A stretch of 64,000 nucleotides of DNA, from NCBI GenBank assembly GCA_034414555.1, contig DAOUMA010000005.1, forward strand, positions 41,220-105,219. Direction: 5' to 3'. Shown piece by piece: positions 4,020-51,826 of the stretch. Within the stretch, counting starts at the first letter, position 1, and each line of letters begins with the position of its first letter. This DNA comes from Dehalococcoidia bacterium. Its GTDB lineage: Bacteria > Chloroflexota > Dehalococcoidia > GIF9 > AB-539-J10. The notes under the pieces were generated by a model, which was not told the DNA's origin, did no database searches, and saw nothing but the letters and a program-made list of their open reading frames with translations. Position numbers and translations under genes: made by a program.

Positions 4020-4793
4020 TTATTTCAGTAATTTTATAGCCAGCTCAGCAGCCTCTCTGCCTGATAGAAGCATGCCTCCGAATATTGGTCCCATCCTGGG
4101 CAAACCAAAGGCGGCACTCGCTGCCATGCCGGCAACTATTAATCCGGGATAAACCTCTTTAGTGTTTTTCACAACCTGTTTCTCAGCCATATCAGCCCAC
4201 ATCGGTTTTTCGCCGATTATGTTTCCTGTGGACGTCCTGAGCTTAGCGCCTATTTTCCTGGTGACCAGATGACAAACCTCACAATCATGCCCCGTAGCAT
4301 CAATTACCAGTTTAGCTTTCATAGCCAGGGGGTCGATATGTAAATTTGCTATGGGCACAGCGCTCCAGTTCAACACCAGCCCGCTAACTTTATCGTTTTC
4401 TTTGATAACCACATCTTCAACATTAACCAAGTTGAATATCCTGGCGCCAGCTTTTACCGCTTGCAAGCAGAGGGCAGAAGCCACCTCTATGGCGCGGGCA
4501 ACATAATAGCCTTCCTGGTATTTAGTAGTGGTGATGCCGAATTCATCGAGTATTTTCTTGCCTTTATCCTGGACTACAATTCTATTGAACATCATTCCAC
4601 CACCCCATATGCCGCCCCCAATGCTCACTCTCTTTTCGAAGATGACGGTGTTTATTTTTTCCTTTGCCAGATAACAGGCAGCAACCAGCCCTGACGGTCC
4701 GGCACCCACTATAGCAACATCGACCTCCATTGCCTCAAGAAGGTCTTTTATGTAGCTTTCAGTTATCGCTTTGGAGATAATGACTTCATCCAT
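4020..4793 (-). CDS. thi4: Thiazole synthase, Thi4 family (archaeal/eukaryotic type)
   Basis: FAD/NAD dinucleotide motif VAIVGAGPSGLVAA and overall Thi4-like sequence (…GGGIWGGGMMF…). Confidence 0.8.
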   Translation of the reverse strand: MDEVIISKAITESYIKDLLEAMEVDVAIVGAGPSGLVAACYLAKEKINTVIFEKRVSIGGGIWGGGMMFNRIVVQDKGKKILDEFGITTTKYQEGYYVARAIEVASALCLQAVKAGARIFNLVNVEDVVIKENDKVSGLVLNWSAVPIANLHIDPLAMKAKLVIDATGHDCEVCHLVTRKIGAKLRTSTGNIIGEKPMWADMAEKQVVKNTKEVYPGLIVAGMAASAAFGLPRMGPIFGGMLLSGREAAELAIKLLK

Positions 4794-4838
4794 TAGCGTG
4801 CAATATTGGGATAGTATATGCTATTTAGCTAGTATTTG

Positions 4839-5069
4839 CTAGGGATTAGCGGCCCACAATCCTCGTTTTTGCTCTCGTGCCTCTCTCTCCAATTGGAGAA
4901 AATATTCTTGGTATTTGGTGTTTGGTGAATAGGAGTAACAATAGGCATAGCCTAGTTTAACAAGTTCAGCGTTAACCATAGTATTGTCCACCCATACGTA
5001 CCTGAGCAAGCGACCATATTCGTCTTTATCCTCAATGTCCTTTTCCAGGTAAACTTTCTTTCCCTCAAT
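4839..5069 (-). pseudogene. 3' remnant of a thermonuclease (staphylococcal-nuclease-like) gene; N-terminal ~half missing, no start codon
   Basis: The minus-strand frame between stop codons reads IEGKKVYLEKDIEDKDEYGRLLRYVWVDNTMVNAELVKLGYAYCYSYSPNTKYQEYFLQLEREAREQKRGLWAANP*. This matches the conserved C-terminal half of SNase-family nucleases (…YGR.LAYV..D…N..LV..G.A…). Upstream sequence is non-coding. Confidence 0.45.
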
Positions 5070-5221
5070 TCAGGCTTAGTTTTCATAAAGTTCTCGCTGT
5101 GAATCTATAGTGATTATACAGGAAAACTAAGGCTTGATAACTTTTTGTGTCTTTGAGAGCGAAGCGTGGCAATCTCATCCTCCGACTGACGGATAAGCGA
5201 AGCAACGCTGCATGTTAGAGA

Positions 5222-5370
5222 TTGTTTAGCAACCTATCTTCCTGCCCCCTTCCCTTGCTAAGGGAAGGGGGAGTGTAGGTAAGAGAGGGGTGAACCCCCT
5301 CTCCATAGATTTCTTCCCCTCTCCTTTGAAGGAGAGGGGGATAAAGGGGGTGAGGTTAGTAAACACTCTC
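5222..5370 (+). repeat. Intergenic repeat element copy 1 (~150 bp, three consecutive GC-rich hairpins)
   Basis: About 88% identical to 51608-51757. The hairpins are ccccttccctt-gcta-aagggaagggg, agagagggg-tgaa-ccccctctc and cccctctcct-ttga-aggagagggg, followed by the conserved tail gataaagggggtgaggttagtaaacactctc. Confidence 0.8.
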
Positions 5371-5524
5371 TATGTTACACAGGTTGTTATGGGTGCAAGC
5401 GAGGTATCTCTCTTGCAGATTGCTTCGTCGCTGACGTTTCTTGCAATGACAAGGTCGGCTTTTTCAGAGGTGGATGAAACTTGGCTCTTTAATTTGCCTC
5501 TGAAATGGGCTAAACTTTATCACC

Positions 5525-7969
5525 ATGGCGTTGAAATACAATCCCTGGGAAATTGAGAAAAAGTGGCAGGATAAATGGGCCGCCGATGGCATTTATGAGG
5601 TAAGTGAGGAAAGCGACCGCCCTAAATTTTATGCCCTGACCATGCTCCCCTATACCTCAGGGGACCTCCATATCGGGCATTGGTATGCTATGGCTCCTTC
5701 GGATGTGTATGCCCGATTTAAGAGGATGCGGGGTTATAATGTGCTTCACCCGATGGGGTTTGATGCTTTTGGGCTTCCTGCCGAGAACGCCGCTATTAGC
5801 CATGGTATCCATCCCTATGTATGGACGATGAAGAACATCGAGAATATGCGCCGCCAGTTAAAAAGCATAGGCGCAATCTATGATTGGAAGCGCGAGGTGA
5901 TTACCTGCCTTCCTGAATATTATAAATGGACACAGTGGTTTTTCTTAAAGCTTTACCATGCTGGATTGGCTTATCGGGCTAAGGCGCCAGTTAACTGGTG
6001 TCCTAAGTGTCAGACAGTATTGGCTAACGAACAGGTGGTAGGTGAGGGATTATGTGAGCGTTGCGGCACTCAGGTGACTAAAAAGGATATGGAGCAGTGG
6101 TTCTTTAGAATCACCAAGTATGCCGAAGAACTCCTTGACCACAGTCAAATAGATTGGCCGGAACGCATAAAGATAATGCAGAAAAACTGGATTGGTAAAA
6201 GCGAAGGTGCTGAAATTTCCTTTGAGTTAGAACAAGAGGGCGTAGAGCAAAAGGAGATAAGGGTGTTTACCACTCGCCCTGATACTATTTTTGGAGTGAC
6301 CTTTTTCCTGCTAGCACCGGAACATCCTTTGGTTCCTTTGTTGACTACCCCGGAACATAAGGCTGAGGTTGAAAAGTATACTGAGTGGTGTCGGCGGCAA
6401 ACTGAATATGAGCGGACAGCCTTAGGCAGGGAAAAGACCGGGGTTTTCCTGGGAAGCTATGTCATCAATAGGTTGAATGGCGAGAAAGTGCCTATCTGGA
6501 TCACTGATTATGTGATGCTTAGTTACGGCACTGGAGCGGTGATGGGGGTACCTGCTCATGATGAGCGAGACCTGGAATTTGCTCGAGAATTTAGCTTGCC
6601 TGTTCGTCCTGTCATTGCTCCTCCTGGCTGGTTGGGTGAGGAAACTCCGCTGCTGTATATTGAGCAAGGCGTGATGATAAATTCCGGTGAATTTACCGGG
6701 TTGTCCAGTGAACGAGGGAGTAAGGCGATTTGCGATTTGTTAACGGAAAAGGGGTGGGGTAAACCAGCTGTTAGTTATCGACTCCGGGATTGGCTCATCT
6801 CGAGACAGAGATACTGGGGAGCGCCGATACCTATAGTTTACTGTGATAAATGTGGCATAGTTCCTGTGCCTGAAGAGAAATTACCTGTTTTACTTCCTCC
6901 TGATGCTGAATTTAAGCCCACCGGTGAGTCTCCTCTTAAATACTGTCCCTCGTTTGTCAACACTACCTGCCCTCAGTGCTCTGGTCCAGCAAAGAGGGAA
7001 ACTGATACTATGGATACCTTCATGTGCTCTAATTGGTATTTCCTGCGATATACTAGCCCCAAAGCGAGCGATGCTCCATTTGATGCTGAAAAGATAAAGT
7101 ATTGGCTGCCAGTTGACATGTATACTGGCGGTGCCGAGCATGCAGTGATGCATCTTCTTTACGCTCGTTTTTTTACCAAAGCATTGAGAGATATAGGTCT
7201 GGTTGATTTTGCCGAGCCATTTACTCGTCTATTTAATCAGGGCACCATAATTTACCATGGTGGCAAGATGAGTAAGTCTAAAGGAAATGTAATTGCTCCG
7301 GATGAATACGTAGCCGAGTTAGGCGCAGATGCTGTTCGGGGTTATTTAATGTTTGTGGGACCATGGGAGTCCGGTGGTGAATGGAGTGATAGCGGTATTG
7401 TAGGCATAAGCCGCTGGCTGAACAGAGTATGGAGCTTGGTAGTGACAGACTATGTTAGCCTGGAAGTCGAATCTGAAGGTGAGAGAGAACTTCGCCGAAT
7501 TGTTCACAAGACAATTAAGAAGGTGACTGAGGATTTGGAAAAATTTCGCTTTAATACTATGGTAGCTAGCCTTATGGAGTTAACCAATTACCTATCCAAA
7601 GTACAGGAAGTGAGGAATGTCTCACTTCTGCTGTGGCAAGAAGCTATTAGCTATTTTTTGCTTCTTCTTGCTCCCACCGCTCCTCACCTTGCTGAGGAAT
7701 TATGGGTTAGGAGTGGTCATTCTTACAGCGTTCATAATCAATTCTGGCCGAAGTTTGACGAAGAGCTTGCCAAAGAGGCAGAAATTACGCTACCGATAGA
7801 GGTAAATGGTAAGTTACGTGACAAGTTGGTTGTGCCTGCTTCTATAACTGAAGTTGAAGTCAGGGAACTGGCGCTGAGTCGTGAGCGAATTAAAGCCTAC
7901 ACCAATGGTAAAAAGATTGATAGAATCATCTACATTCCTGGTCGAGTGATGAATATTGTGGTGAGATAA
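5525..7969 (+). CDS. leuS: Leucyl-tRNA synthetase
   Basis: 814 aa; HIGH motif (LHIGHWY), KMSKS motif, editing-domain features. Confidence 0.95.
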   Translation: MALKYNPWEIEKKWQDKWAADGIYEVSEESDRPKFYALTMLPYTSGDLHIGHWYAMAPSDVYARFKRMRGYNVLHPMGFDAFGLPAENAAISHGIHPYVWTMKNIENMRRQLKSIGAIYDWKREVITCLPEYYKWTQWFFLKLYHAGLAYRAKAPVNWCPKCQTVLANEQVVGEGLCERCGTQVTKKDMEQWFFRITKYAEELLDHSQIDWPERIKIMQKNWIGKSEGAEISFELEQEGVEQKEIRVFTTRPDTIFGVTFFLLAPEHPLVPLLTTPEHKAEVEKYTEWCRRQTEYERTALGREKTGVFLGSYVINRLNGEKVPIWITDYVMLSYGTGAVMGVPAHDERDLEFAREFSLPVRPVIAPPGWLGEETPLLYIEQGVMINSGEFTGLSSERGSKAICDLLTEKGWGKPAVSYRLRDWLISRQRYWGAPIPIVYCDKCGIVPVPEEKLPVLLPPDAEFKPTGESPLKYCPSFVNTTCPQCSGPAKRETDTMDTFMCSNWYFLRYTSPKASDAPFDAEKIKYWLPVDMYTGGAEHAVMHLLYARFFTKALRDIGLVDFAEPFTRLFNQGTIIYHGGKMSKSKGNVIAPDEYVAELGADAVRGYLMFVGPWESGGEWSDSGIVGISRWLNRVWSLVVTDYVSLEVESEGERELRRIVHKTIKKVTEDLEKFRFNTMVASLMELTNYLSKVQEVRNVSLLLWQEAISYFLLLLAPTAPHLAEELWVRSGHSYSVHNQFWPKFDEELAKEAEITLPIEVNGKLRDKLVVPASITEVEVRELALSRERIKAYTNGKKIDRIIYIPGRVMNIVVR

Positions 7970-7978
7970 AGGAGGGAT

Positions 7979-8770
7979 ATGAAAATAACATTTATTGGTG
8001 GTGGGACGATGGGAGAAGCAATGATTAAATGCCTTCTGGCTAAAAAGGTCGTTTTGCCTCAGGATATTGTGGTTAGCGATGTGAATGAATTAAGGCGTGA
8101 ATTATTAGCCCGAGAATATAAGGTGAAAACCTCTGCTGATAGTAGCAGAGCGGTGGAGAATGCTGATGTGGTTGTCCTGGCAATTAAGCCTAGGGATTTA
8201 GCGGAGGTGATGGAGGTCATAAGAGGGTCACTGCGCCAACAAGCCATATTATCCATAGTGGCTGGCGCTAGCTTATCTACTCTGAGTGATGGTTTAACTT
8301 ATCCTTATATCATTCGTGCTATGCCTAATATGCCTGCGCAGATTGGAGAAGGAATGACGGTATGGACTACGATGAGCGAAGCTACTCAGGAACATAAAAA
8401 GATGGCTCGCTCTATTCTTAGTGCTTTGGGTAAGGAACTTTATTTTCCCGATGAGAAGTATATTGATATGGCTACGGCTTTAAGTGGTAGTGGTCCAGCT
8501 TATGTATTTCTATTTATCGAAGTGCTTACCGATGCCGGCGTCCATATCGGTTTACCTTACAAAGCGGCTAAGGAATTAACACTACAGACGATACTTGGCT
8601 CTGCTTACATGGTGGAAAAGATGGAAAAACACCCTGCTGAGCTGAGAAACATGGTTACTTCTCCAGGTGGGACGACTGCTGAAGCTCTGGCTCAATTGGA
8701 GAGGGGAGGCTTTCGCTCCAGCATTCTTGAAGCTGTTATTGCTGCTTATGAGAAAGCCAAGCGACTTTAA
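7979..8770 (+). CDS. proC: Pyrroline-5-carboxylate reductase
   Basis: N-terminal Rossmann motif MKITFIGGGTMGEAM and a conserved P5CR C-terminal domain (SPGGTT). Confidence 0.9.
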   Translation: MKITFIGGGTMGEAMIKCLLAKKVVLPQDIVVSDVNELRRELLAREYKVKTSADSSRAVENADVVVLAIKPRDLAEVMEVIRGSLRQQAILSIVAGASLSTLSDGLTYPYIIRAMPNMPAQIGEGMTVWTTMSEATQEHKKMARSILSALGKELYFPDEKYIDMATALSGSGPAYVFLFIEVLTDAGVHIGLPYKAAKELTLQTILGSAYMVEKMEKHPAELRNMVTSPGGTTAEALAQLERGGFRSSILEAVIAAYEKAKRL

Positions 8771-8787
8771 GCAAGCAACAAGGTAAG

Positions 8788-9735
8788 ATGGATTCATTAT
8801 TTGAGCATCGTAATTGCCCCAATTGTGGAGAGAATGACTTTGAGGTGCTGTTCGACTCCAATATAAAGAGAGGTGACCTTCAAGGTGGTATAGATACTAT
8901 CTATATGCTTCCCGGGGATAAATATGGAAGGCATGTTAAGTGTCGAAAGTGCCAGCTTGTATGTGTAAATCCAATTGAGAAAGCAAGCCGAATCAACGAT
9001 AACTACTCTGAAATGAACAATGGCGATGTGTCTATTGTTCGGGAAAATCGCTTACGTGCCACTAAAGCGCAGGTGAAATTAGCCCAAAAATATAAGGGCA
9101 ATACCAAGCTTTTAGATATAGGTTGTGGGGAAGGGTTTTTCCTGTTTAATGCTTCCAGGGCAGGCTATATTACCGAGGGGGTTGAATTATCGCAGAATGC
9201 CGTGGAATATGCCAGGAGGGAGTTTGGCTTGGATGTAGAGGTAGGACCATTTGAAGAGATGCAATTTCCAGAAAACTATTTTGATGTGGTTACTTTATGG
9301 CAAGTTCTGGAGCATCTGCCACAACCGCTTATGGTTCTTAAAGAGGCCTGCAGGGTGCTTAAGCCAGGAGGGTTGCTGGTGGTATCAACGCCAGACTTTG
9401 GAGGGATACCAGCAAGAATCATGGGGAAAAGATGGTGGAATGTGAGGAGAATTCACATCAATCAATTTACCACCAAAACCCTTATGAACATTATGAAGAA
9501 TGCCGGGTTTGAGAATTTATCTTCGGTCAACTACAGGGAATCCATAAGTTTACTTATGCTGGTTATACCATTGTTGAGATGGTTTAAGGCGCGTAAGCTG
9601 GGAACGGCGTTACTCCACCCTGGCTCTACTCAAGGAAGGATTATGAATAAGATAACATTGGTATACCCTTCAAGACTCGATAACTGTGTAGCGATTGGCT
9701 TCAAACAGAAGTCTCAAGCTATTGCTAGCGAATGA
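8788..9735 (+). CDS. Class I SAM-dependent methyltransferase with N-terminal Cys4 zinc-ribbon (C-methyltransferase-like architecture)
   Basis: CPNCG…CRKCQ zinc ribbon followed by SAM motif I LLDIGCGEGFF and a post-I acidic residue. This resembles sugar/natural-product C-methyltransferases. Confidence 0.7.
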   Translation: MDSLFEHRNCPNCGENDFEVLFDSNIKRGDLQGGIDTIYMLPGDKYGRHVKCRKCQLVCVNPIEKASRINDNYSEMNNGDVSIVRENRLRATKAQVKLAQKYKGNTKLLDIGCGEGFFLFNASRAGYITEGVELSQNAVEYARREFGLDVEVGPFEEMQFPENYFDVVTLWQVLEHLPQPLMVLKEACRVLKPGGLLVVSTPDFGGIPARIMGKRWWNVRRIHINQFTTKTLMNIMKNAGFENLSSVNYRESISLLMLVIPLLRWFKARKLGTALLHPGSTQGRIMNKITLVYPSRLDNCVAIGFKQKSQAIASE

Positions 9736-10724
9736 CGAATTTTTCGGTATTACAAGGACTTAAGCTTGCCAGGAAGGCAATACGTAACTATATGACAAAT
9801 CGCCCTGTAGTGGTTTCTTATGAAGTGACTCTTTCTTGTAATTGCAACTGCTGCCATTGCGACCTCGGTGGCGTGATAAGGGACGAAAAGCAACTTCAGC
9901 CACATGAGTATGGTGAGCTAACTAGATTGTTGAATCCTCCTGTGTTGCAGATCTCAGGTGGGGAACCGTTTCTGCGTAAAGATATAATCGAGGTGGTGAA
10001 GGCTGTCAAGCAACCTGATGGGCTTCCCTATTTGATATTTGTTACCAATGGGGTGCTATTAAATGAGAGTAATTATCTTCAGTTACACGAAGCTGGTGTG
10101 AATCAAATTTCGGTATCGCTTGATTTTCCCGATGAAAGGCATGACGATTTCCGACGGCATCAGGGTTTGTATAAACGTTTGGAGAAGACACTTCCACAGT
10201 TAGCGAAGTTTGGTTATCGAGATATTATCTTGAACACAGTTATAACCAGAGCGAACCTGAAGGAAGTTTTGCCTATAGCTAGGAAGGCTGAAGAGTGGAA
10301 TGTATTCATATCATATAGCGCATATACTGCAAGACGGACGGGTGATAGAAGTTATTGTATCGCTAGTGAAGAAGAACAGGAAATTTTACGCAGAACTATT
10401 GAACAACTTTTGGAATTACAAAAGCGAACTAATCATATAGTTAACCCTAAAGCTGAACTTTTGGATACCTTGAAGTTCCTTGAGCAAGGATATATGCCTA
10501 ATTGCAAGGCGGGTATAAGGTTCTTCGTGGTAATGCCTGACGGAGCTTTTGTCCCGTGTTCACTATGGCGTAACAAATATTCCAGCCAAAAAGAGATGAT
10601 AGAAAAGTTCTCGCGCTCTAATCAATGTAGTGATTGTTATGTTAGTATAAGGGCTTACAGCGAGAGGTCATTTTGGGGTCAGGTAAAAGAGGCTCCAAGT
10701 TATGGCAAGCGGTTTTTCGCTTAA
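9732..10724 (+). CDS. Radical SAM protein with Cys-rich C-terminal (SPASM-like) region
   Basis: The CxxxCxxC cluster is embedded in SCNCNCCHCD. Additional C-terminal cysteines: NCKAG…PCSLW…NQCSDCYVS. The start overlaps the methyltransferase stop (ATGA), implying translational coupling. Confidence 0.7.
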   Translation: MTNFSVLQGLKLARKAIRNYMTNRPVVVSYEVTLSCNCNCCHCDLGGVIRDEKQLQPHEYGELTRLLNPPVLQISGGEPFLRKDIIEVVKAVKQPDGLPYLIFVTNGVLLNESNYLQLHEAGVNQISVSLDFPDERHDDFRRHQGLYKRLEKTLPQLAKFGYRDIILNTVITRANLKEVLPIARKAEEWNVFISYSAYTARRTGDRSYCIASEEEQEILRRTIEQLLELQKRTNHIVNPKAELLDTLKFLEQGYMPNCKAGIRFFVVMPDGAFVPCSLWRNKYSSQKEMIEKFSRSNQCSDCYVSIRAYSERSFWGQVKEAPSYGKRFFA

Positions 10725-10744
10725 AATCTTTGATAAGCTTTACC

Positions 10745-11011
10745 TTAAGTGACAGTTGGAGTCTCGCCGGGATGTAACTTGCGCCACTTTCCCAGAAGTT
10801 GCTCGTGGGTTTCCTTATGCTCTGGGTCGAGAACACAGGAATCTACTGGACATATCTCAACACACTTGGATGATTCGAACCACCCTACACACTCAGTGCA
10901 TTTGTCGGGGTCGATGACATAGATTGATTCACCTTCACTTATCGCCTCATTCTTGCATTCTGATTCACAGGCGCCACAACTGATGCATTCATCGTTAATT
11001 TTGTATGCCAT
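10745..11011 (-). CDS. 2x[4Fe-4S] ferredoxin with C-terminal extension
   Basis: Motifs CISCGACESEC and CTECVGW…CVEICP. Confidence 0.65.
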   Translation of the reverse strand: MAYKINDECISCGACESECKNEAISEGESIYVIDPDKCTECVGWFESSKCVEICPVDSCVLDPEHKETHEQLLGKWRKLHPGETPTVT

Positions 11012-11030
11012 TCCTTTATCACCTCCTTAA

Positions 11031-11564
11031 TTACAATGAAATTTTGTTTCGATGTGAAGCCTTTTCTGCTGGAGCTTCAAGGTATTCTCCACATAACTTT
11101 TCATTCAAGGCAACAGCAACATGTTTGGGAACTAGTCCCTCAAGGCAACCTCTAAGCTTTGCTACTTCCTTAATCAACCTGGAACTGAGGCACTGATATT
11201 CAGAGCTTGTCATGAAGCAAATTAATTCTATGTCTGGTGCCAGCTTCTTATTCATCATTGCCATTTCGAACTCTGCCTCAAAGTCGGAATTCATCCGTAA
11301 TCCTCGAATCATTATCTTTCCTCGCTCTTTGCGGATGAAGTCCACGGTAAGGCCAGAGTAGGATTTAACATAAACATTGTGTACTTCAGCTACTGCTTCT
11401 CTGGCCAAAGCTAACCTTTCTTCTAGAGAGAAGAGCATTTGTTTATCCGGTCTATCATAGATGCCGATGATTAACTTGTCAAAAAGAGCAGACGCACGGT
11501 TAATAATATCGAGGTGTCCGTTAGTTATGGGGTCGAAGCTACCGGGATATATTGCTGTTACCAT
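11031..11564 (-). CDS. coaD: Phosphopantetheine adenylyltransferase
   Basis: AIYPGSFDPITNGHLDII signature. Confidence 0.9.
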   Translation of the reverse strand: MVTAIYPGSFDPITNGHLDIINRASALFDKLIIGIYDRPDKQMLFSLEERLALAREAVAEVHNVYVKSYSGLTVDFIRKERGKIMIRGLRMNSDFEAEFEMAMMNKKLAPDIELICFMTSSEYQCLSSRLIKEVAKLRGCLEGLVPKHVAVALNEKLCGEYLEAPAEKASHRNKISL

Positions 11565-12111
11565 TGTTTATTCTTTGATACATAGAAACACATGTATCAC
11601 CATAATGAGATTGTTTAACTAGATGTAGTTTATCATACTCAGAGTTTGGTGAAAAGTGCTTCGTGTGGCAAAGCACTACCATGGAGTTGGCTCCTATAAG
11701 CTCTGAACTGGCTATGGTTGTTAATACGTTGTCTATAGATGACAGAGAATACGGGGGGTCAAGGAAAATAACATCGTAATTATTGTTTAGGAATGTGATT
11801 GCTTTCTTCACGTTACAACAATAAACGTGAGCTCTGTCGGGAAAACCTGTCTTTTCCAGGTTATGTTTAATAATGTCGCAGCACTTTTTGCTTTGGTCAA
11901 CGAAATCAACCCACTCTGCGTTGCGGCTTAGGGCCTCAATGCCTAAAGCCCCAGTGCCAGCATATAAGTCAACAATCCGGTGCCAATCATGGGACATGTT
12001 CTGTAAGGTGGAGAAAATGGCATGTCTTACTAAATCTGTAGTAGGGCGAAGTGATTGTTTCTGTAGCGTTTTTAATTGTATTCCTTTGGCTTTACCGCCT
12101 GTTATTCGCAT
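11539..12111 (-). CDS. rsmD: 16S rRNA (guanine966-N2)-methyltransferase RsmD
   Basis: MRITGG…DLYAGTGALGIEALSR…DPPY motifs. Confidence 0.85.
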   Translation of the reverse strand: MRITGGKAKGIQLKTLQKQSLRPTTDLVRHAIFSTLQNMSHDWHRIVDLYAGTGALGIEALSRNAEWVDFVDQSKKCCDIIKHNLEKTGFPDRAHVYCCNVKKAITFLNNNYDVIFLDPPYSLSSIDNVLTTIASSELIGANSMVVLCHTKHFSPNSEYDKLHLVKQSHYGDTCVSMYQRINNGNSNISR

Positions 12112-12250
12112 TCTCAGTTATCATTTTATCGTAACTTACTCTCTGCTTCAACAATTGATGACTGCTTTCATGATTAGTGATGTATCATTTACCAGGCTCC
12201 CCCTTGCTTCAGGGTATTCTCTCTACTAGAATATATTCTTACGTAACCAC

Positions 12251-14044
12251 ATGGAGAAAATTTACCACAAATTTGTGGTACAACTGAAGCATATAGCTTC
12301 TTTTGCTACCCTTGCCTACCTGCGAAGGTGGCTTCCCGCCGTCATTTTGATTGGCATTACTGCCGGTGTAGCGTCTATTGCGTTCTTTTCTGCCATAAAC
12401 TGGGCTAGCAAGCTTTTCCTTGGTTTAGGGGCTGGTTTTGTTCCTCCTGTCCCCGCTGGTGTTGGCGAGACTGTTGTCACTGGAATAAGCAGGAAATGGA
12501 TGATTCCCGTAATAACCGCGATCGGTGGTCTAATAACCGGCTTTATCATCTATAAGTTGGCGCCTGAAGCTGAAGGTCACGGAACTGATGCTGCCATAGA
12601 TGCCTTTCACCGTAAGGATGGAGTGATACGAACTAGGATCCCTCTCCTTAAGTTGGTTGCTTCGGCGGTCACAATTGGCTCCGGTGGAAGTGCTGGCAGG
12701 GAAGGGCCAATGGCTCAGATCTCAGCTGGCTGTGGTTCCTTGGTAGGGAGACTATTCAGGTTTAACGCCCATGACCGCAGGCTGGCTGTAGCTGTGGGAA
12801 TTGGAACCGGGATTGGCTCTATATTTAAAGCACCTTTTGGTGGCGCTATACTAAGCGCAGAGATTTTGTACTTACAAGGATTTGAGGTAGAGGCTCTTCT
12901 TCCTTCATTTATATCCACAATCATTGGCTATTCTATCTATGCTAGCTGGTCTGGATTTGCTCCCATTTTTGGTGAACACGTTGCCATAAGCTTCTCCAAT
13001 CCTGCTACCCTGGGTTCTTACGCCCTATTAGGCATCCTTTGTGGCCTAGTAGGCATTGTGTATGCTCGCACATTTTACGGTGTGCGTAACCTTTTTCGTA
13101 GACTGAACATCTCAAACTGCTATAAACCGGCTATCGGCGGCTTGGTTACAGGCTTGATCGGGCTTGCTCTGCCGCAAGTATTGGGTATGGGATATGGCTG
13201 GCTTCAGTTGGCAATGCAACCTGAAAGATTGGCGCTTTCTGTCATGATAGCCTTGGTATTTGCCAAGATAGTGGCTACCTCCTTCTCTATAGGTTCCGGG
13301 GGTAGTGGTGGGGTGTTTGCTCCTGGCTTAGTTATGGGAGGCATGTTGGCCGCTTCACTGTGGACTTTAGGTCATAACTTTGTTGGTTCTTATTTGCCCT
13401 CTAATCCCGAGCCCTTCGTTGTCGTTGGCATGATGGCTCTTTTTGGTGCTGTGGCTCATGCTCCTGTAGCGGTGATTGTTATGGTGAGTGAGATGACAGG
13501 GACATATACGATGCTAGTGCCGGCCATGGTAGCAGTAGGCTTTGCTTATGTCATTGTAGGCAGGATTACTATTTACGAAAGCCAGATTTCATCCCCAATA
13601 GCTTCCCCAGCACACAAATATGAGTATGTCACCCCGCTTCTGAGGATAATGCAGGTAAAGCAGGCAATGGTCAGTGGTTGTGAGGTGATTTCTACAAAGG
13701 CAAGCGTGGAAGAAGCGGCAGAAATGATACATAGATGTAACATGGATATTCCGGTGGTAGATGCAGGGCAGCTAGTAGGAATAGTAGCCAGGGAGGATAT
13801 TCTTCCTATTCCGAGTGAGTCAAGAAGTATAACCAAGGTTGAAAGCGTGATGTCAACTGATTTAGCGGTGATTCATATTGAGGAAACGCTGGAGCAAGCA
13901 CTGGAACTCATGATAACCAGAAGAGTAGCTGTCTTGCCTGTAGTGGATAGGAAAGAGCCTACAAAACTTCTGGGCTTGGTGACCCGCGATAGCATCATCC
14001 AGGCTTATGAATTGGAGGCTAGAAAGATGTTAAGGAAAGTTTAG
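12251..14044 (+). CDS. ClC-family chloride channel/transporter with C-terminal CBS domain pair
   Basis: GSGGSAGREGP and GIFKAPFGG selectivity-filter motifs, multiple TM helices, C-terminal tandem CBS-like region. Confidence 0.85.
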   Translation: MEKIYHKFVVQLKHIASFATLAYLRRWLPAVILIGITAGVASIAFFSAINWASKLFLGLGAGFVPPVPAGVGETVVTGISRKWMIPVITAIGGLITGFIIYKLAPEAEGHGTDAAIDAFHRKDGVIRTRIPLLKLVASAVTIGSGGSAGREGPMAQISAGCGSLVGRLFRFNAHDRRLAVAVGIGTGIGSIFKAPFGGAILSAEILYLQGFEVEALLPSFISTIIGYSIYASWSGFAPIFGEHVAISFSNPATLGSYALLGILCGLVGIVYARTFYGVRNLFRRLNISNCYKPAIGGLVTGLIGLALPQVLGMGYGWLQLAMQPERLALSVMIALVFAKIVATSFSIGSGGSGGVFAPGLVMGGMLAASLWTLGHNFVGSYLPSNPEPFVVVGMMALFGAVAHAPVAVIVMVSEMTGTYTMLVPAMVAVGFAYVIVGRITIYESQISSPIASPAHKYEYVTPLLRIMQVKQAMVSGCEVISTKASVEEAAEMIHRCNMDIPVVDAGQLVGIVAREDILPIPSESRSITKVESVMSTDLAVIHIEETLEQALELMITRRVAVLPVVDRKEPTKLLGLVTRDSIIQAYELEARKMLRKV

Positions 14045-14055
14045 TCGGAGGTAAC

Positions 14056-14085
14056 TTGACAAGATTAACTTTGATTCCTTATAAT
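14056..14085 (+). promoter_or_regulatory. Near-consensus sigma-70 promoter upstream of pyrG (TTGACA-17 nt-TATAAT)
   Basis: TTGACA at 14056-14061, 17-nt spacer, TATAAT at 14080-14085; pyrG start lies ~75 nt downstream. Confidence 0.45.
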
Positions 14086-14160
14086 TGTGTATAATTCAAT
14101 TTGCCTCGTAATCACGTGACCATACCTCGTTTCTTGAGTTAATTAAATCTGTGATAAATA

Positions 14161-15789
14161 GTGGCTAAGTATATCTTCGTTACCGGTGGTGTAATTAGTT
14201 CTGTTGGTAAGGGGATATCGGTAGCTTCTATTGGTCGGGTATTGAAAAGTCGTTCTATTTCTGTTTCAGTGCAAAAGCTTGACCCTTATTTGAATGTTGA
14301 TCCGGGCACAATGTCTCCATATCAACACGGGGAGGTATTTGTTACCCAAGATGGCGCTGAAACTGATTTAGATTTGGGACATTATGAAAGGTTTATCGAC
14401 GTGGAATTAACTAGAGCTTCAAATGTTACTTCAGGAGAAATATATTCCACGATTATTGCCAATGAGCGAAGAGGTGACTTTTTGGGCGGCACCATTCAGA
14501 TAGTACCTCATGTGACAAACGAAATAAAAAGGCGTATCAGGCAAGTAGCTGAAATATCTAATGCCGATGTAGTCATAGTTGAAGTTGGTGGCACTGTGGG
14601 TGATATTGAAGGGCAGCCGTTTCTTGAAGCCATTCGTCAAATGAGGGGGGAAGAAGGAAGAGATAATGTGCTGTATATTCATGTTACTTTTTTACCTTAC
14701 ATTGCTGCCACGGACGAATTAAAGACCAAGCCTACACAGCATAGTGTCAATGAACTAAGAAGGATTGGTATTCAACCTGATGTTATCTTGTGTCGCAGCG
14801 ACCGGGAGATACCGGAAGGGATAAAGGATAAGATATCACTTTTCTGTGATGTGCCAAAAGAAGCAGTTATCCCCTTGGTTACCAGTGAAACTATTTATGA
14901 AGTGCCCTTGATGCTGGAGGAATATGGGTTAGGGGACTTCATAGTCAATCGTTTGGTGCTGGAGGCTAAGGAGGCTGATTTGGATAATTGGCACAAGATG
15001 GTAGCCAGGCTGAAAGCCCCTAAAACCCCAGTGGTCATTGGTCTAGTGGGGAAGTATGTTGAGCTTCATGATGCCTATTACTCGGTGCGGGAAGCATTAT
15101 GTCATGCAGCTTTAGCGCACAATTTGGATGTGAAGATAGAATGGCTTAGCTCGGAAGGATTGGATGGCAGTAATGATGATAAGTTGAGGCAAGTTCAAGG
15201 CATAGTGGTACCTGGTGGCTTTGGGCATAGAGGTATTGAGGGTATGGTAGAGACTGCTAAGTTTGCCCGAGAAGAAAAGGTTCCTTACTTGGGTTTATGT
15301 CTTGGTATGCAGATTATGGTTATTGAATTTGGGCGGCATGTGTTTCATAATATGAGAGTTAATTCTACTGAGTTTGACGCTGACACTCCTTATCCTGTAA
15401 TTGACTTGCTTCCTGGACAACGTGGTATTAGCCAGAAAGGAGGAACTATGCGTTTGGGAACTTATCCTTGCTGCTTAGTACCCGGGACGAAGGCAGCTCA
15501 GGCTTATAATAGGGAGACAATTTATGAAAGGCATCGGCATCGTTTTGAGTTTAATAATCGGTTTCGTCAGCCATTGGAGGAAGCAGGACTTATATCTAGC
15601 GGGCTTTCACCGGACGGGGAATTGGTGGAAATCGTTGAGCTGAAGAATCATCCCTGGATGGTCGCCTGTCAATTCCATCCTGAATTTAAATCTCGCCCTG
15701 ACAGTCCTCACCCGCTTTTTGTGAATTTTATCAAGGTAGCGAATGAGACGCTTGTTGAAGGTGCTCAGACAAGCCTACCCTTGAGTTAA
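14161..15789 (+). CDS. pyrG: CTP synthase
   Basis: GTG start; N-terminal synthetase motif [16 protein letters not shown]; C-terminal glutamine amidotransferase domain with the catalytic Cys in GLCLGMQ. Confidence 0.95.
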
Positions 15790-50296: not shown

Positions 50297-51599
50297 CCAA
50301 TTCTCCCCACATTCCCTGGTCGTGAACTGCGGTTAATTTGACCTTCGCTATTTTATTGGTCAATGATTTCTCGCTCTGAGTGAATACTCTAACATAATTA
50401 TCGGTCAGCCCGGAATATAGGCTACTTCCAGCGATTGTCTCCTTTTCCCATAAGACGTCTATGGTTTGTCCTAGGAATTGTTCCCGAAAGCTGTGCCGAC
50501 AACTTTGTGACAGCTCCAGCATCCTTGCGGTGCGTTCCTTCTTGACTTTATCGCTCACCTGGTAAAGCATTTCAACTGCCTCAGTGCCAGGTCGAGGTGA
50601 AAAGGGAAAAACATGGATGTTAGCGAAGCCGGCTTGGTGGCAAAAATTGTAGGTTTGCTCAAATTCTTCATCGCTTTCCCCGGGGAAGCCGACGACGACA
50701 TCGGTAGTGATAGCTACTCTGGGTATTGTCTGACTAATCAACTCTGTCACCTTCCTATAATCGTGCCGAGAATAAGGGCGTCGCATTCTCTTTAGCATAG
50801 TATCACTACCGCTTTGAAGAGCTAGATGGAAATGAGGGCATAACCTCTTGTCTTGCCACAATGCTAGAAGGGCTGGGGAGAATTCCTGAGGTTGCAATGA
50901 AGAAAGACGCAGTCGTTCAATTTCTGTGTTACTGAGGATGTGCTTTATTAAACTAACAAGATCGGTACTGTCATCTTTATAGCAGCCGATTTTTGTCCCG
51001 GTGAGAATAACCTCTCTATAATTCATGGCTACTTTTTCCTGAATCGTGCTGATTATTTCTGAGGCTGGCAGGCAAAACTGGTGGGTCCGCACTTTGGGAA
51101 CGATGCAGTAAGCACAGTGGCTGTCGCATCCATCTTGAATCTTTACCAAGGAGCGGACTCTGAAAGTACTATTTTGAATAGCAAGTGGTTGGATCTGTAG
51201 AGGTTCTATTTCAGGTGAGATGCTTTCTATGATTTCAACTAAGTTCTCTTTTTCTTCGTTGTCCAGAACGAAGTCAGCAATAGGTGTCAATTCCTGGGGA
51301 ATCCGTTGGGCATAACATCCGGTAGCGATGGTTAAAGCTCCGGGATTTTTCCGTTTCACCAGCCTAAGCCAGTGGCGCGACTTGCGATCGGCAATATGAG
51401 TGACCGTGCAAGTATTAGCAATATAGATGTCTGCTACATCGTTTGGTGATACAGGCTGGTAGCCAGCATCATGGAATTGGTCAATCAGGGATTCAGTTTC
51501 CGCTTGATTCAGTTTGCACCCCAGTGTATAGAAGGCTACCTTCAAGGTTCTTCTTTTGTACACAAAGTGATTATATTGGCTATTTGACTGTGTGGTCAA
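50268..51599 (-). CDS. mtaB: Radical-SAM methylthiotransferase (MtaB/MiaB-like)
   Basis: N-terminal MTTase domain (VAFYTLGCKLNQAE), radical SAM CDSHCAYC, C-terminal TRAM. Confidence 0.85.
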   Translation of the reverse strand: MTTQSNSQYNHFVYKRRTLKVAFYTLGCKLNQAETESLIDQFHDAGYQPVSPNDVADIYIANTCTVTHIADRKSRHWLRLVKRKNPGALTIATGCYAQRIPQELTPIADFVLDNEEKENLVEIIESISPEIEPLQIQPLAIQNSTFRVRSLVKIQDGCDSHCAYCIVPKVRTHQFCLPASEIISTIQEKVAMNYREVILTGTKIGCYKDDSTDLVSLIKHILSNTEIERLRLSSLQPQEFSPALLALWQDKRLCPHFHLALQSGSDTMLKRMRRPYSRHDYRKVTELISQTIPRVAITTDVVVGFPGESDEEFEQTYNFCHQAGFANIHVFPFSPRPGTEAVEMLYQVSDKVKKERTARMLELSQSCRHSFREQFLGQTIDVLWEKETIAGSSLYSGLTDNYVRVFTQSEKSLTNKIAKVKLTAVHDQGMWGELVENSSQGKA

Positions 51600-51607
51600 A
51601 TTGGTAG

Positions 51608-51757
51608 ATTGTTTAGTAACCTATCCCCCTGCCCCTTTTCCCTTAGCAAGAGAAGGGGGTATAGGTAAGAGAGGGGTGAAACCCCTCTCTATAAATCTCT
51701 TCCCCTTCTCCTTTGAAGGAGAGGGGGATAAAGGGGGTGAGGTTAGTAAACACTCTC
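51608..51757 (+). repeat. Intergenic repeat element copy 2 (triple-hairpin, ~150 bp)
   Basis: About 88% identical to 5222-5370, with an identical 31-nt 3' tail; begins 9 nt from the mtaB start codon. Confidence 0.8.
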
Positions 51758-51826
51758 AAATTGGTAGTATTTACCCTGTTTTTACCATCGTGGTATAGTT
51801 AAAAGTTCCTGTAGAGATCATTAAGT

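Follow-up and report, generated by a model that had tools for sequence, protein, structure and literature searches.

A methyltransferase and radical-SAM gene pair of Dehalococcoidia as a candidate cassette for membrane-lipid head-group tailoring

The subject of this report is a pair of adjoining genes in a 64,000-nucleotide stretch of DNA (hereafter the window; G+C content of ~45%) from a Dehalococcoidia bacterium (GenBank assembly GCA_034414555.1, contig DAOUMA010000005.1, positions 41,220 to 105,219). The first gene (8788-9735, plus strand) encodes a predicted 315-aa class I methyltransferase with a zinc ribbon, dependent on S-adenosylmethionine (SAM) and called MT below, and the second (9732-10724, plus strand) encodes a predicted 330-aa radical-SAM enzyme of the twitch type, called rSAM. 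We tentatively propose that the two proteins form a cassette that tailors a membrane lipid at its polar head group or acts on a phosphorylated or CDP-activated precursor of that head group. This is the reading we favour, while judging its prospects to be somewhat short of even; within it, the head group is probably of the inositol type. We are led to this view by the genes that accompany relatives of rSAM, which include cytidylyltransferase fusions as well as MIPS, CDP-OH_P_transf, LPG_synthase_TM, VTT and WecA-like neighbours.

Lipid-related genes accompany relatives of rSAM

More than 1,200 word-indexed relatives of rSAM were recovered, the best 120 of which are 66-96% identical to the window protein, carry generic names and, wherever a taxon is named, belong to Dehalococcoidia/Chloroflexi. 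An exhaustive search of representatives at 50% identity gave 81 rSAM clusters at E ≤1e-30, and scanning with a 10-sequence rSAM alignment located at least 551 loci coding for a relative in species-representative genomes. Of the 80 best of these loci, 79 are from metagenome-assembled genomes (MAGs) of Dehalococcoidia or Chloroflexota (or from one labelled only 'bacterium'), and the exception is a single 2.3-kb contig binned as Spirochaetales. More distant gene contexts came from two sources, a metagenome scan and the relatives of the fusion protein described next.

Members of a clade that is 26-33% identical to rSAM carry an N-terminal fusion to an NTP_transferase domain. These fusions form one cluster of three sequences (P0183) and a second (P0271) that is 47% identical to the first, and at a further locus (L090) the NTP_transferase and rSAM genes are adjacent and separate. 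The fused domain is 40-52% identical to that of bifunctional proteins composed of NTP_transferase and CDP-OH_P_transf domains, whose JGI name is CDP-L-myo-inositol myo-inositolphosphotransferase. Downstream of the fusion gene at one locus (L088) lie co-oriented LPG_synthase_TM, PMT_2 and CDP-OH_P_transf genes, and at a second (L089) the co-oriented genes are LPG_synthase_TM, CDP-OH_P_transf and another radical-SAM gene. Inositol-lipid clusters of Bacteroidetes contain an NTP-transferase, a CDP-alcohol phosphatidyltransferase and MIPS, with an LPG-synthase-like gene nearby (Heaver et al. 2022, PMC9246714), and the same gene types are fused to or surround relatives of the window rSAM. As a difference from the system considered here, the description of these published clusters mentions neither a radical-SAM enzyme nor a methyltransferase, and the window locus is without the cluster genes.

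For closer relatives, we recorded the arrangement of 123 Dehalococcoidia-type rSAM copies (≥58% identity) among 172 loci. MT lies immediately 5' of rSAM in 68 of the 123, and the pair is therefore kept as neighbours in most related genomes, as the initial annotation of this DNA had anticipated. Another 10 copies lie directly behind proC without MT, eight are the second copy of an rSAM-rSAM tandem, and 23 are located elsewhere in the genome with a VTT/DedA gene immediately 3'. A further arrangement, found for two copies (L059 and L062), is a MIPS-GT4-rSAM-CDP-alcohol-phosphatidyltransferase string with gaps of 59, 15 and 146 nt, the 15-nt gap being that between GT4 and rSAM; these paralogues are 63-64% identical to the window rSAM. 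A copy that is 69% identical (L064) is followed by an LPG_synthase_TM gene. The VTT-linked clade reaches copies at 53-55% identity (L123 and L128), and at five loci the rSAM genes of a clade with 41-45% identity are transcribed divergently from a WecA/MraY-type Glycos_transf_4 gene.

Several other arrangements were noted among distant relatives. Nitrospirota-type relatives (27-30% identical; L086, L091 and L092) are convergent with a gene for a 640-aa GMC-family oxidoreductase, and a FAD_binding_4/FAD-oxidase_C protein is also encoded directly upstream in L086. Relatives at 47-51% identity (L106, L107, L108, L117, L126, L132 and L137) have a divergent second radical-SAM gene ~500 bp upstream, which encodes ~345 aa and is 24-26% identical where blast detects similarity, and 11 loci of this set also have a gene for a SpoU-type methylase upstream. 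Besides its fusion gene, the L089 cluster includes a 437-aa radical-SAM gene from another family (4777-6090 of that locus).

MT and rSAM are exchanged as a unit

The window organism is closely related to 'Dehalococcoidia bacterium CG2_30_46_19' (L011), and the proteins encoded on either side of the pair are 97-98% identical between the two. At the nucleotide level, the flanks match at 95-100% and the interval from ~8970 to ~10670 at 59-87%, giving a trough that runs from 98% to ~70% and back to 98% across the MT core and rSAM. The divergent tract (8970-10670, plus strand) starts after the codons of the MT zinc ribbon, an N-terminal part that stays outside it, covers the MT catalytic domain and nearly all of rSAM, and ends 55 nt short of the rSAM stop codon. 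Given that the flanks are ~98% identical and the two genes between them are not, MT and rSAM have been exchanged jointly, as one unit, between close relatives. The L011 segment is nearest (84-85% nucleotide identity) to cassettes from lineages whose backbones are much more divergent, such as L013 (proC at 66%, rsmD at 59%), and the window allele recurs at 97.5% in a metagenome contig (L145). This clean replacement amounts to a natural experiment in which two alleles occupy one genomic background.

Together with the frequency of their adjacency and with an overlap or short gap that is kept consistently from locus to locus, the joint exchange indicates that MT and rSAM act as a unit, which we count in favour of a two-enzyme cassette. 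Minor support comes from a mirror-tree comparison, in which MT and rSAM distances, once corrected for flank divergence, show only a moderate partial correlation (0.38). Although adjacency is common, MT is a facultative partner and has been lost several times in Dehalococcoidia lineages.

The copy number and integrity of rSAM genes vary. Main-locus and VTT-linked copies co-occur in several MAGs (L013 with L025; L015 with L022). Tandem copies (MT-rSAM-rSAM-fdx, where fdx is the ferredoxin gene) are present at the main locus in L032, L034, L038, L040, L042, L047, L050 and L085; in L040, proC stands where MT would be, and the tandem copies fall in different tree clades. Two VTT-linked paralogues (L022, 6870-7865; L025, 8001-8996) have an in-frame TAG at codon 195, which is Tyr in relatives. 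We considered and rejected selenocysteine at this position, because the stop is a TAG at a Tyr site and the L025 copy also lacks the invariant Cys276; both features identify this paralogue as a pseudogene. The L022 and L025 genomes retain their MT-linked copy. Inserted segments of 1-2.5 kb lie between proC and MT in L045, L047 and L084, and between MT and rSAM in L072, and the proC-MT-rSAM junction appears to be a rearrangement hotspot.

Features of the two predicted enzymes

Membership of rSAM in the Radical SAM superfamily is established by PF04055 (63.5 bits, above the gathering threshold of 29.5), the sole Pfam match in its 330 residues, and by an invariant CX3CX2C motif (C36, C40 and C43; 9837-9860, plus strand). 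The initial annotation described this region as an unusual cysteine-dense CNCNCCHC cluster. It is instead the canonical motif accompanied by two non-conserved cysteines, C38 and C41, which are replaced by Ala or Thr in relatives at ≤50% identity. The extra C-terminal cysteines that were also noticed are genuine, and comprise four invariant residues in the pattern C258-X12-G-X4-C276…C299-X2-C302 (10503-10637, plus strand). All seven of these motif cysteines are invariant in alignments reaching down to 27% identity, the C-terminal ones having been judged in alignments A1, A2, A4 and A5.

A full SPASM domain (PF13186) is defined by seven cysteines in the arrangement CX9-15GX4C…CX2CX5CX3C…C and by two auxiliary clusters. 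We found no PF13186 match in rSAM, whose C-terminal region has only four cysteines and no CX5CX3C part. Twitch domains are truncated SPASM domains with CX9-15GX4C, further cysteine ligands and one auxiliary cluster, and rSAM is accordingly predicted to be a twitch-type enzyme with a single auxiliary cluster. Thus, the earlier label 'SPASM-like' is apt for the C-terminal auxiliary motif, whereas the full domain is not present. Twitch-domain radical-SAM enzymes, with BtrN, BlsE and MoaA as examples, were reportedly classified by Grell, Goldman and Drennan in 2015. These enzymes share with rSAM a partial TIM-barrel, the CX3CX2C motif and one auxiliary [4Fe-4S] site (predicted in rSAM) that starts with CX9-15GX4C, whereas the second half of the auxiliary motif in rSAM is a simple CX2C. 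BlsE and MoaA are among its top matches by fold and by sequence, yet they are only 15-21% identical.

Judged by the cut-offs of NCBIfam (release of June 2026), no curated family claims rSAM. The top scores, ~80 bits, are three- to ten-fold short, an observation that we count in favour of the head-group proposal. Pfam domains for B12 binding or of TYW1-like or Tes/GrsA-like type, which the initial annotation had suggested looking for, are not found in rSAM: there is no PF02310 cobalamin-binding domain such as would mark a B12-dependent radical-SAM methylase, and the Tes model (NF045702) scores 49.5 bits against 450, over residues 66-187 only. MT likewise passes no NCBIfam cut-off, its top match being UbiG (55.6 bits against 103), and the description of the pair as uncharacterised therefore stands.

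An AlphaFold model of rSAM (pLDDT 80, pTM 0.85) is nearest in fold to SkfB, BlsE, MoaA, SuiB, viperin, PqqE and EpeE, and also to CteB, with TM scores up to 0.65 and identities of ≤22% in full-length matches. This set of twitch and SPASM folds includes enzymes that act on nucleotide-linked substrates (BlsE, MoaA and viperin), which we also count for a head-group substrate. Many Arg, Asp and Asn residues are conserved in the rSAM alignments, and these suggest a charged substrate. Hydropathy analysis revealed no transmembrane segment in either rSAM or MT.

MT is matched by Methyltransf_23, 11, 31 and 25 of Pfam (E values from 1e-27 to 1e-17) and is well above the cut-offs that define a class I methyltransferase (Methyltransf_23, 96 bits against 27; Methyltransf_11, 78 against 21). 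Its N-terminal zinc ribbon (C10, C13…C52, C55; 8815-8952, plus strand) is real, since all four cysteines are invariant in 25 homologues. In the same homologues, G112-G116 of the SAM-binding motif I (D110-I-G-C-G-E-G116; 9115-9135, plus strand) are also invariant. Among the 120 homologues listed, names are generic or missing and every named taxon is from Dehalococcoidia/Chloroflexi; as far as these homologues reveal, the MT family may be confined to Dehalococcoidia. The initial annotation had likened MT to C-methyltransferases. In support of this, TcaB9-type sugar C-methyltransferases similarly have an N-terminal four-cysteine zinc domain followed by a class I fold, and phmmer weakly aligns MT residues 51-243 with TcaB9 residues 55-247 (E 2e-5). 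However, the C-terminal domain differs, generic methyltransferases outscore TcaB9 on MT, and Pfam detects neither of the sugar C-methyltransferase domains PF08421 and PF08484. As a lead only, the similarity would fit C-methylation beside a radical-generated carbonyl.

A tentative role in head-group tailoring

From the architectures, conserved cysteines, adjacency, joint exchange and gene contexts described above, we infer both a substrate class and a chemistry. The CX3CX2C cluster of rSAM would reductively cleave SAM, and the resulting 5'-deoxyadenosyl radical would abstract a hydrogen from a C-H position of a polyol or cyclitol, with the electron passing to or from the one auxiliary cluster of the twitch type. 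By analogy with BtrN, BlsE, viperin and calditol synthase, the substrate might be oxidised, dehydrated, epimerised or rearranged. MT would then methylate the product, either at O or beside a newly formed carbonyl. A bolder version, in which the cassette yields a methylated, radically remodelled cyclitol or sugar head group as the bacterial counterpart of archaeal calditol synthase chemistry, and in which divergent alleles swapped between strains by homologous recombination make strain-specific surface lipids under diversifying selection (for example by phages on largely wall-less cells), is unlikely.

Numerous points weigh against the head-group proposal. The window contains no MIPS, CDP-alcohol transferase or VTT gene, and the immediate context of the pair is one of housekeeping genes (leuS, proC, coaD and rsmD). 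The strongest evidence for inositol comes from relatives that are just 26-33% identical to rSAM or from the two loci of one lineage (L059 and L062), and the substrates of paralogues may differ from that of the window enzyme. Neighbours of other distant relatives (GMC oxidoreductase, SpoU, carbonic anhydrase or a second rSAM) are uninformative. The VTT gene converges on rSAM and does not share its transcript, a single event that was then inherited may account for the adjacency of the two, and a VTT-rSAM fusion (P0129) is represented by one sequence only. With respect to MT, similarity extends to class I enzymes in general, and the structural model (pLDDT 42) is too poor for fold comparison. Furthermore, MT is absent from ~10 main-locus copies and from every paralogue locus, and therefore rSAM does not need MT.

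A published parallel can be drawn by description. Calditol synthase (Cds, Saci_1489) is a radical-SAM enzyme that acts on a lipid-bound hexose, and is the sole head-group enzyme described in a 2026 review of lipid-modifying radical-SAM enzymes (PMC13459092). The role that we propose for the cassette is of the same sort, a radical remodelling of a lipid polyol or sugar head group after glycosyl- or phospho-transfer, and the GT4-rSAM adjacency in L059 and L062 parallels the proposed order of glucosyl transfer followed by radical chemistry. Unlike the cassette, Cds is archaeal, acts on glycerol dialkyl glycerol tetraether (GDGT) lipids and has no methyltransferase partner described. That review was the only relevant item found by a literature search combining radical SAM with inositol, lipid or headgroup, and nothing relevant was found that links radical SAM with MIPS/CDP-alcohol transferase, DedA, CDP-inositol or Dehalococcoidia.

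We therefore regard the cassette as a new and uncharacterised twitch radical-SAM protein with an attached methyltransferase. No description exists so far of radical-SAM enzymes acting on lipid head groups in bacteria, and the rSAM family suggests that a step is missing from the bacterial 'CDP-inositol' pathway. Aquifers and subsurface sediments harbour abundant Dehalococcoidia, most of which are uncultured, and little is known of their lipids. Given a family that is present in more than 550 species-level genomes and that recurs in inositol-lipid clusters, the cassette is a testable candidate source of unexplained polar lipids in anoxic settings.

Alternative functions

Lipid, cofactor, RNA and ribosomally synthesized and post-translationally modified peptide (RiPP) substrates were all put forward in the initial annotation, and gene contexts across the family favour the first of these. 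Even with a lipid substrate, the acyl chain rather than the head group might be the target, such that the pair produces mid-chain methyl-branched or otherwise altered fatty acids or couples chains in the manner of Tes or Mss. Dehalococcoides is known for 10-methyl-16:0 and furan fatty acids, the top PDB sequence match of rSAM is the tetraether synthase GDGT-MAS (7tol; E 1e-11), and membrane-protein neighbours such as VTT and LPG_synthase_TM would fit any lipid substrate. The GDGT-MAS match is limited to the core, however, the Tes score noted above is far below its cut-off, and rSAM has one predicted auxiliary cluster where SPASM proteins have two. For Mss, membership is taken to require E ≤1e-50 and ≥30% identity to Tmari_0825 or WP_129545148.1 (PMC13159169). 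CMAS (PF02353) matches in MT and its homologues are weak (17 bits against 27). Because the cytidylyltransferase fusions and the MIPS, GT4 and CDP-alcohol transferase neighbours indicate the polar part of a lipid, and the conserved Arg, Asp and Asn residues suggest a charged substrate, we consider an acyl-chain role unlikely. RNA modification, of tRNA or rRNA, would suit a pair that is co-directional with leuS and proC at tiny gaps, adjoins rsmD and coaD, and keeps its synteny across Dehalococcoidia. The rRNA enzyme RlmA likewise combines a zinc ribbon with a class I domain, and MT weakly matches its type (NF008300, E 2.8e-6; PDB 1p91, E 2.3e-4), but these scores are far under the cut-offs and reflect the generic methyltransferase core only. 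No RlmN, MiaB, TYW1 or QueE model is among the best 25 of 55 NCBIfam hits of rSAM, whose relatives reside in lipid clusters and not in translation clusters. The dispensability of MT at ~10 loci and the presence of two to three rSAM paralogues per genome, some of them decaying, also count against this role, allele replacement between near-identical strains would be atypical of RNA-modification genes, and we judge RNA modification to be quite unlikely.

A divergent cofactor-biosynthesis step of the MoaA, AhbD, NirJ or HpnH kind, followed by methylation, is suggested by the best NCBIfam matches of rSAM, namely archaeal MoaA (83 bits, near full length), AhbD (82), NirJ2 (74) and HpnH (56), and by the proximity of the MoaA fold. 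These scores are three- to eight-fold under the curated cut-offs. The MoaA models (TIGR02666, TIGR02668 and NF001199) give 83.1 bits against 325, 72.4 against 284 and 75.3 against 231, and those of the heme pathway 81.9 against 500 (AhbD), 74.1 against 500 (NirJ) and 61.2 against 650 (AhbC). Other pathway genes are missing from the neighbourhood, and several paralogues, a facultative MT and allele exchange would be ill-suited to a core cofactor step, making this possibility improbable. We give similarly little credence, and if anything less, to an anti-phage or competition function, in which a viperin-like nucleotide-modifying rSAM and MT would be under diversifying selection. Viperins, which convert CTP to ddhCTP, share a related core with rSAM (TM ~0.55-0.58) and are among its nearest folds, alleles are replaced between strains, and PADLOC reports pVip on rSAM (52 bits, residues 25-192 only) and mad2 on MT (50 bits). 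A substrate that, like that of viperins, is a cytidine nucleotide would be compatible with the fusions to a cytidylyltransferase. However, the PADLOC matches cover only part of the core, which is why we rank defence low, and the NCBIfam model for prokaryotic viperin (NF038283) scores 45.7 bits against 180. To our knowledge, viperins lack a four-cysteine auxiliary domain or cluster. The cassette is outside any defence context: hundreds of species carry it at a fixed syntenic site within a housekeeping operon, with no defence island or neighbouring defence genes. Finally, maturation of a RiPP whose precursor peptide escaped annotation is extremely improbable, and we reject it. The folds nearest to rSAM include SkfB, SuiB, CteB and PqqE, and peptide-maturase models of NCBIfam weakly match the rSAM core, but a small ORF cannot fit in the gaps flanking the pair (8771-8787, 17 nt; 10725-10744, 20 nt), where the initial annotation had recommended a search for one, and no conserved small ORF was seen in ~170 loci. 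With Radical_SAM as the only Pfam domain, no peptide-recognition element is detected, full SPASM is absent, and no protease or transporter gene is nearby.

Organization of the locus and additional observations

The three open reading frames (ORFs) of the initial annotation, for MT, rSAM and a ferredoxin, were all correctly placed, and the 4-nt ATGA overlap between the MT stop and rSAM start codons (gaATGAcg; 9732-9735, plus strand) can be read in the sequence. The overlap itself is lineage-specific; most of the listed MT homologues are 306 aa long and end 10-15 nt ahead of the rSAM start, and adjacency is the trait that is conserved. The housekeeping surroundings were also described accurately. 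Upstream and co-directional with the pair are leuS (5525-7969, plus strand) and, after a 9-nt gap, proC (7979-8770, plus strand), which ends 17 nt before MT; leuS-proC synteny is kept across Dehalococcoidia, and leuS, proC, MT and rSAM probably share a transcription unit. A consensus scan of 7800-12300 for promoters and terminators gave nothing above chance, and an Rfam scan of 4800-14200 gave no match.

On the opposite strand, a string composed of rsmD (12111-11539, minus strand), coaD (11564-11031, minus strand) and, 19 nt further on, the ferredoxin gene (10745-11011, minus strand, 88 aa) converges on MT and rSAM. The ferredoxin belongs to the YfhL family with two [4Fe-4S] clusters (NF033683, 110.4 bits against 86, residues 1-79/80). 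The initial annotation grouped it with the pair as a trio, a grouping that comparison does not support: its gene is on the other strand, lies outside the exchanged tract, is found with or without MT, and is absent beside other rSAM paralogues. It closes the rsmD-coaD string and is simply a convergent neighbour of the pair. The protein could possibly donate electrons to rSAM, a role that any low-potential ferredoxin could serve.

Two other features distinguish the window from its close relatives or recur within it. A 597-aa ORF (12251-14044, within a segment at 12152-14079) between rsmD and pyrG resembles, by eye, a ClC-type channel with C-terminal CBS domains. The ORF is missing from the otherwise collinear L011, L006, L009 and L010, and is thus a strain-specific insertion or deletion. 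A G+C-rich repeat of ~170 bp, an imperfect palindrome with nested hairpins that resembles miniature inverted-repeat transposable elements (MITE) or repetitive extragenic palindromes (REP), is present at 5216-5376, upstream of leuS and with no Rfam match in the scan mentioned above, and again at 51595-51760. The same repeat is found in L011 at 55-213 and 7046-7224, and a copy in that genome occupies the exact site of the extra ClC/CBS gene of the window.

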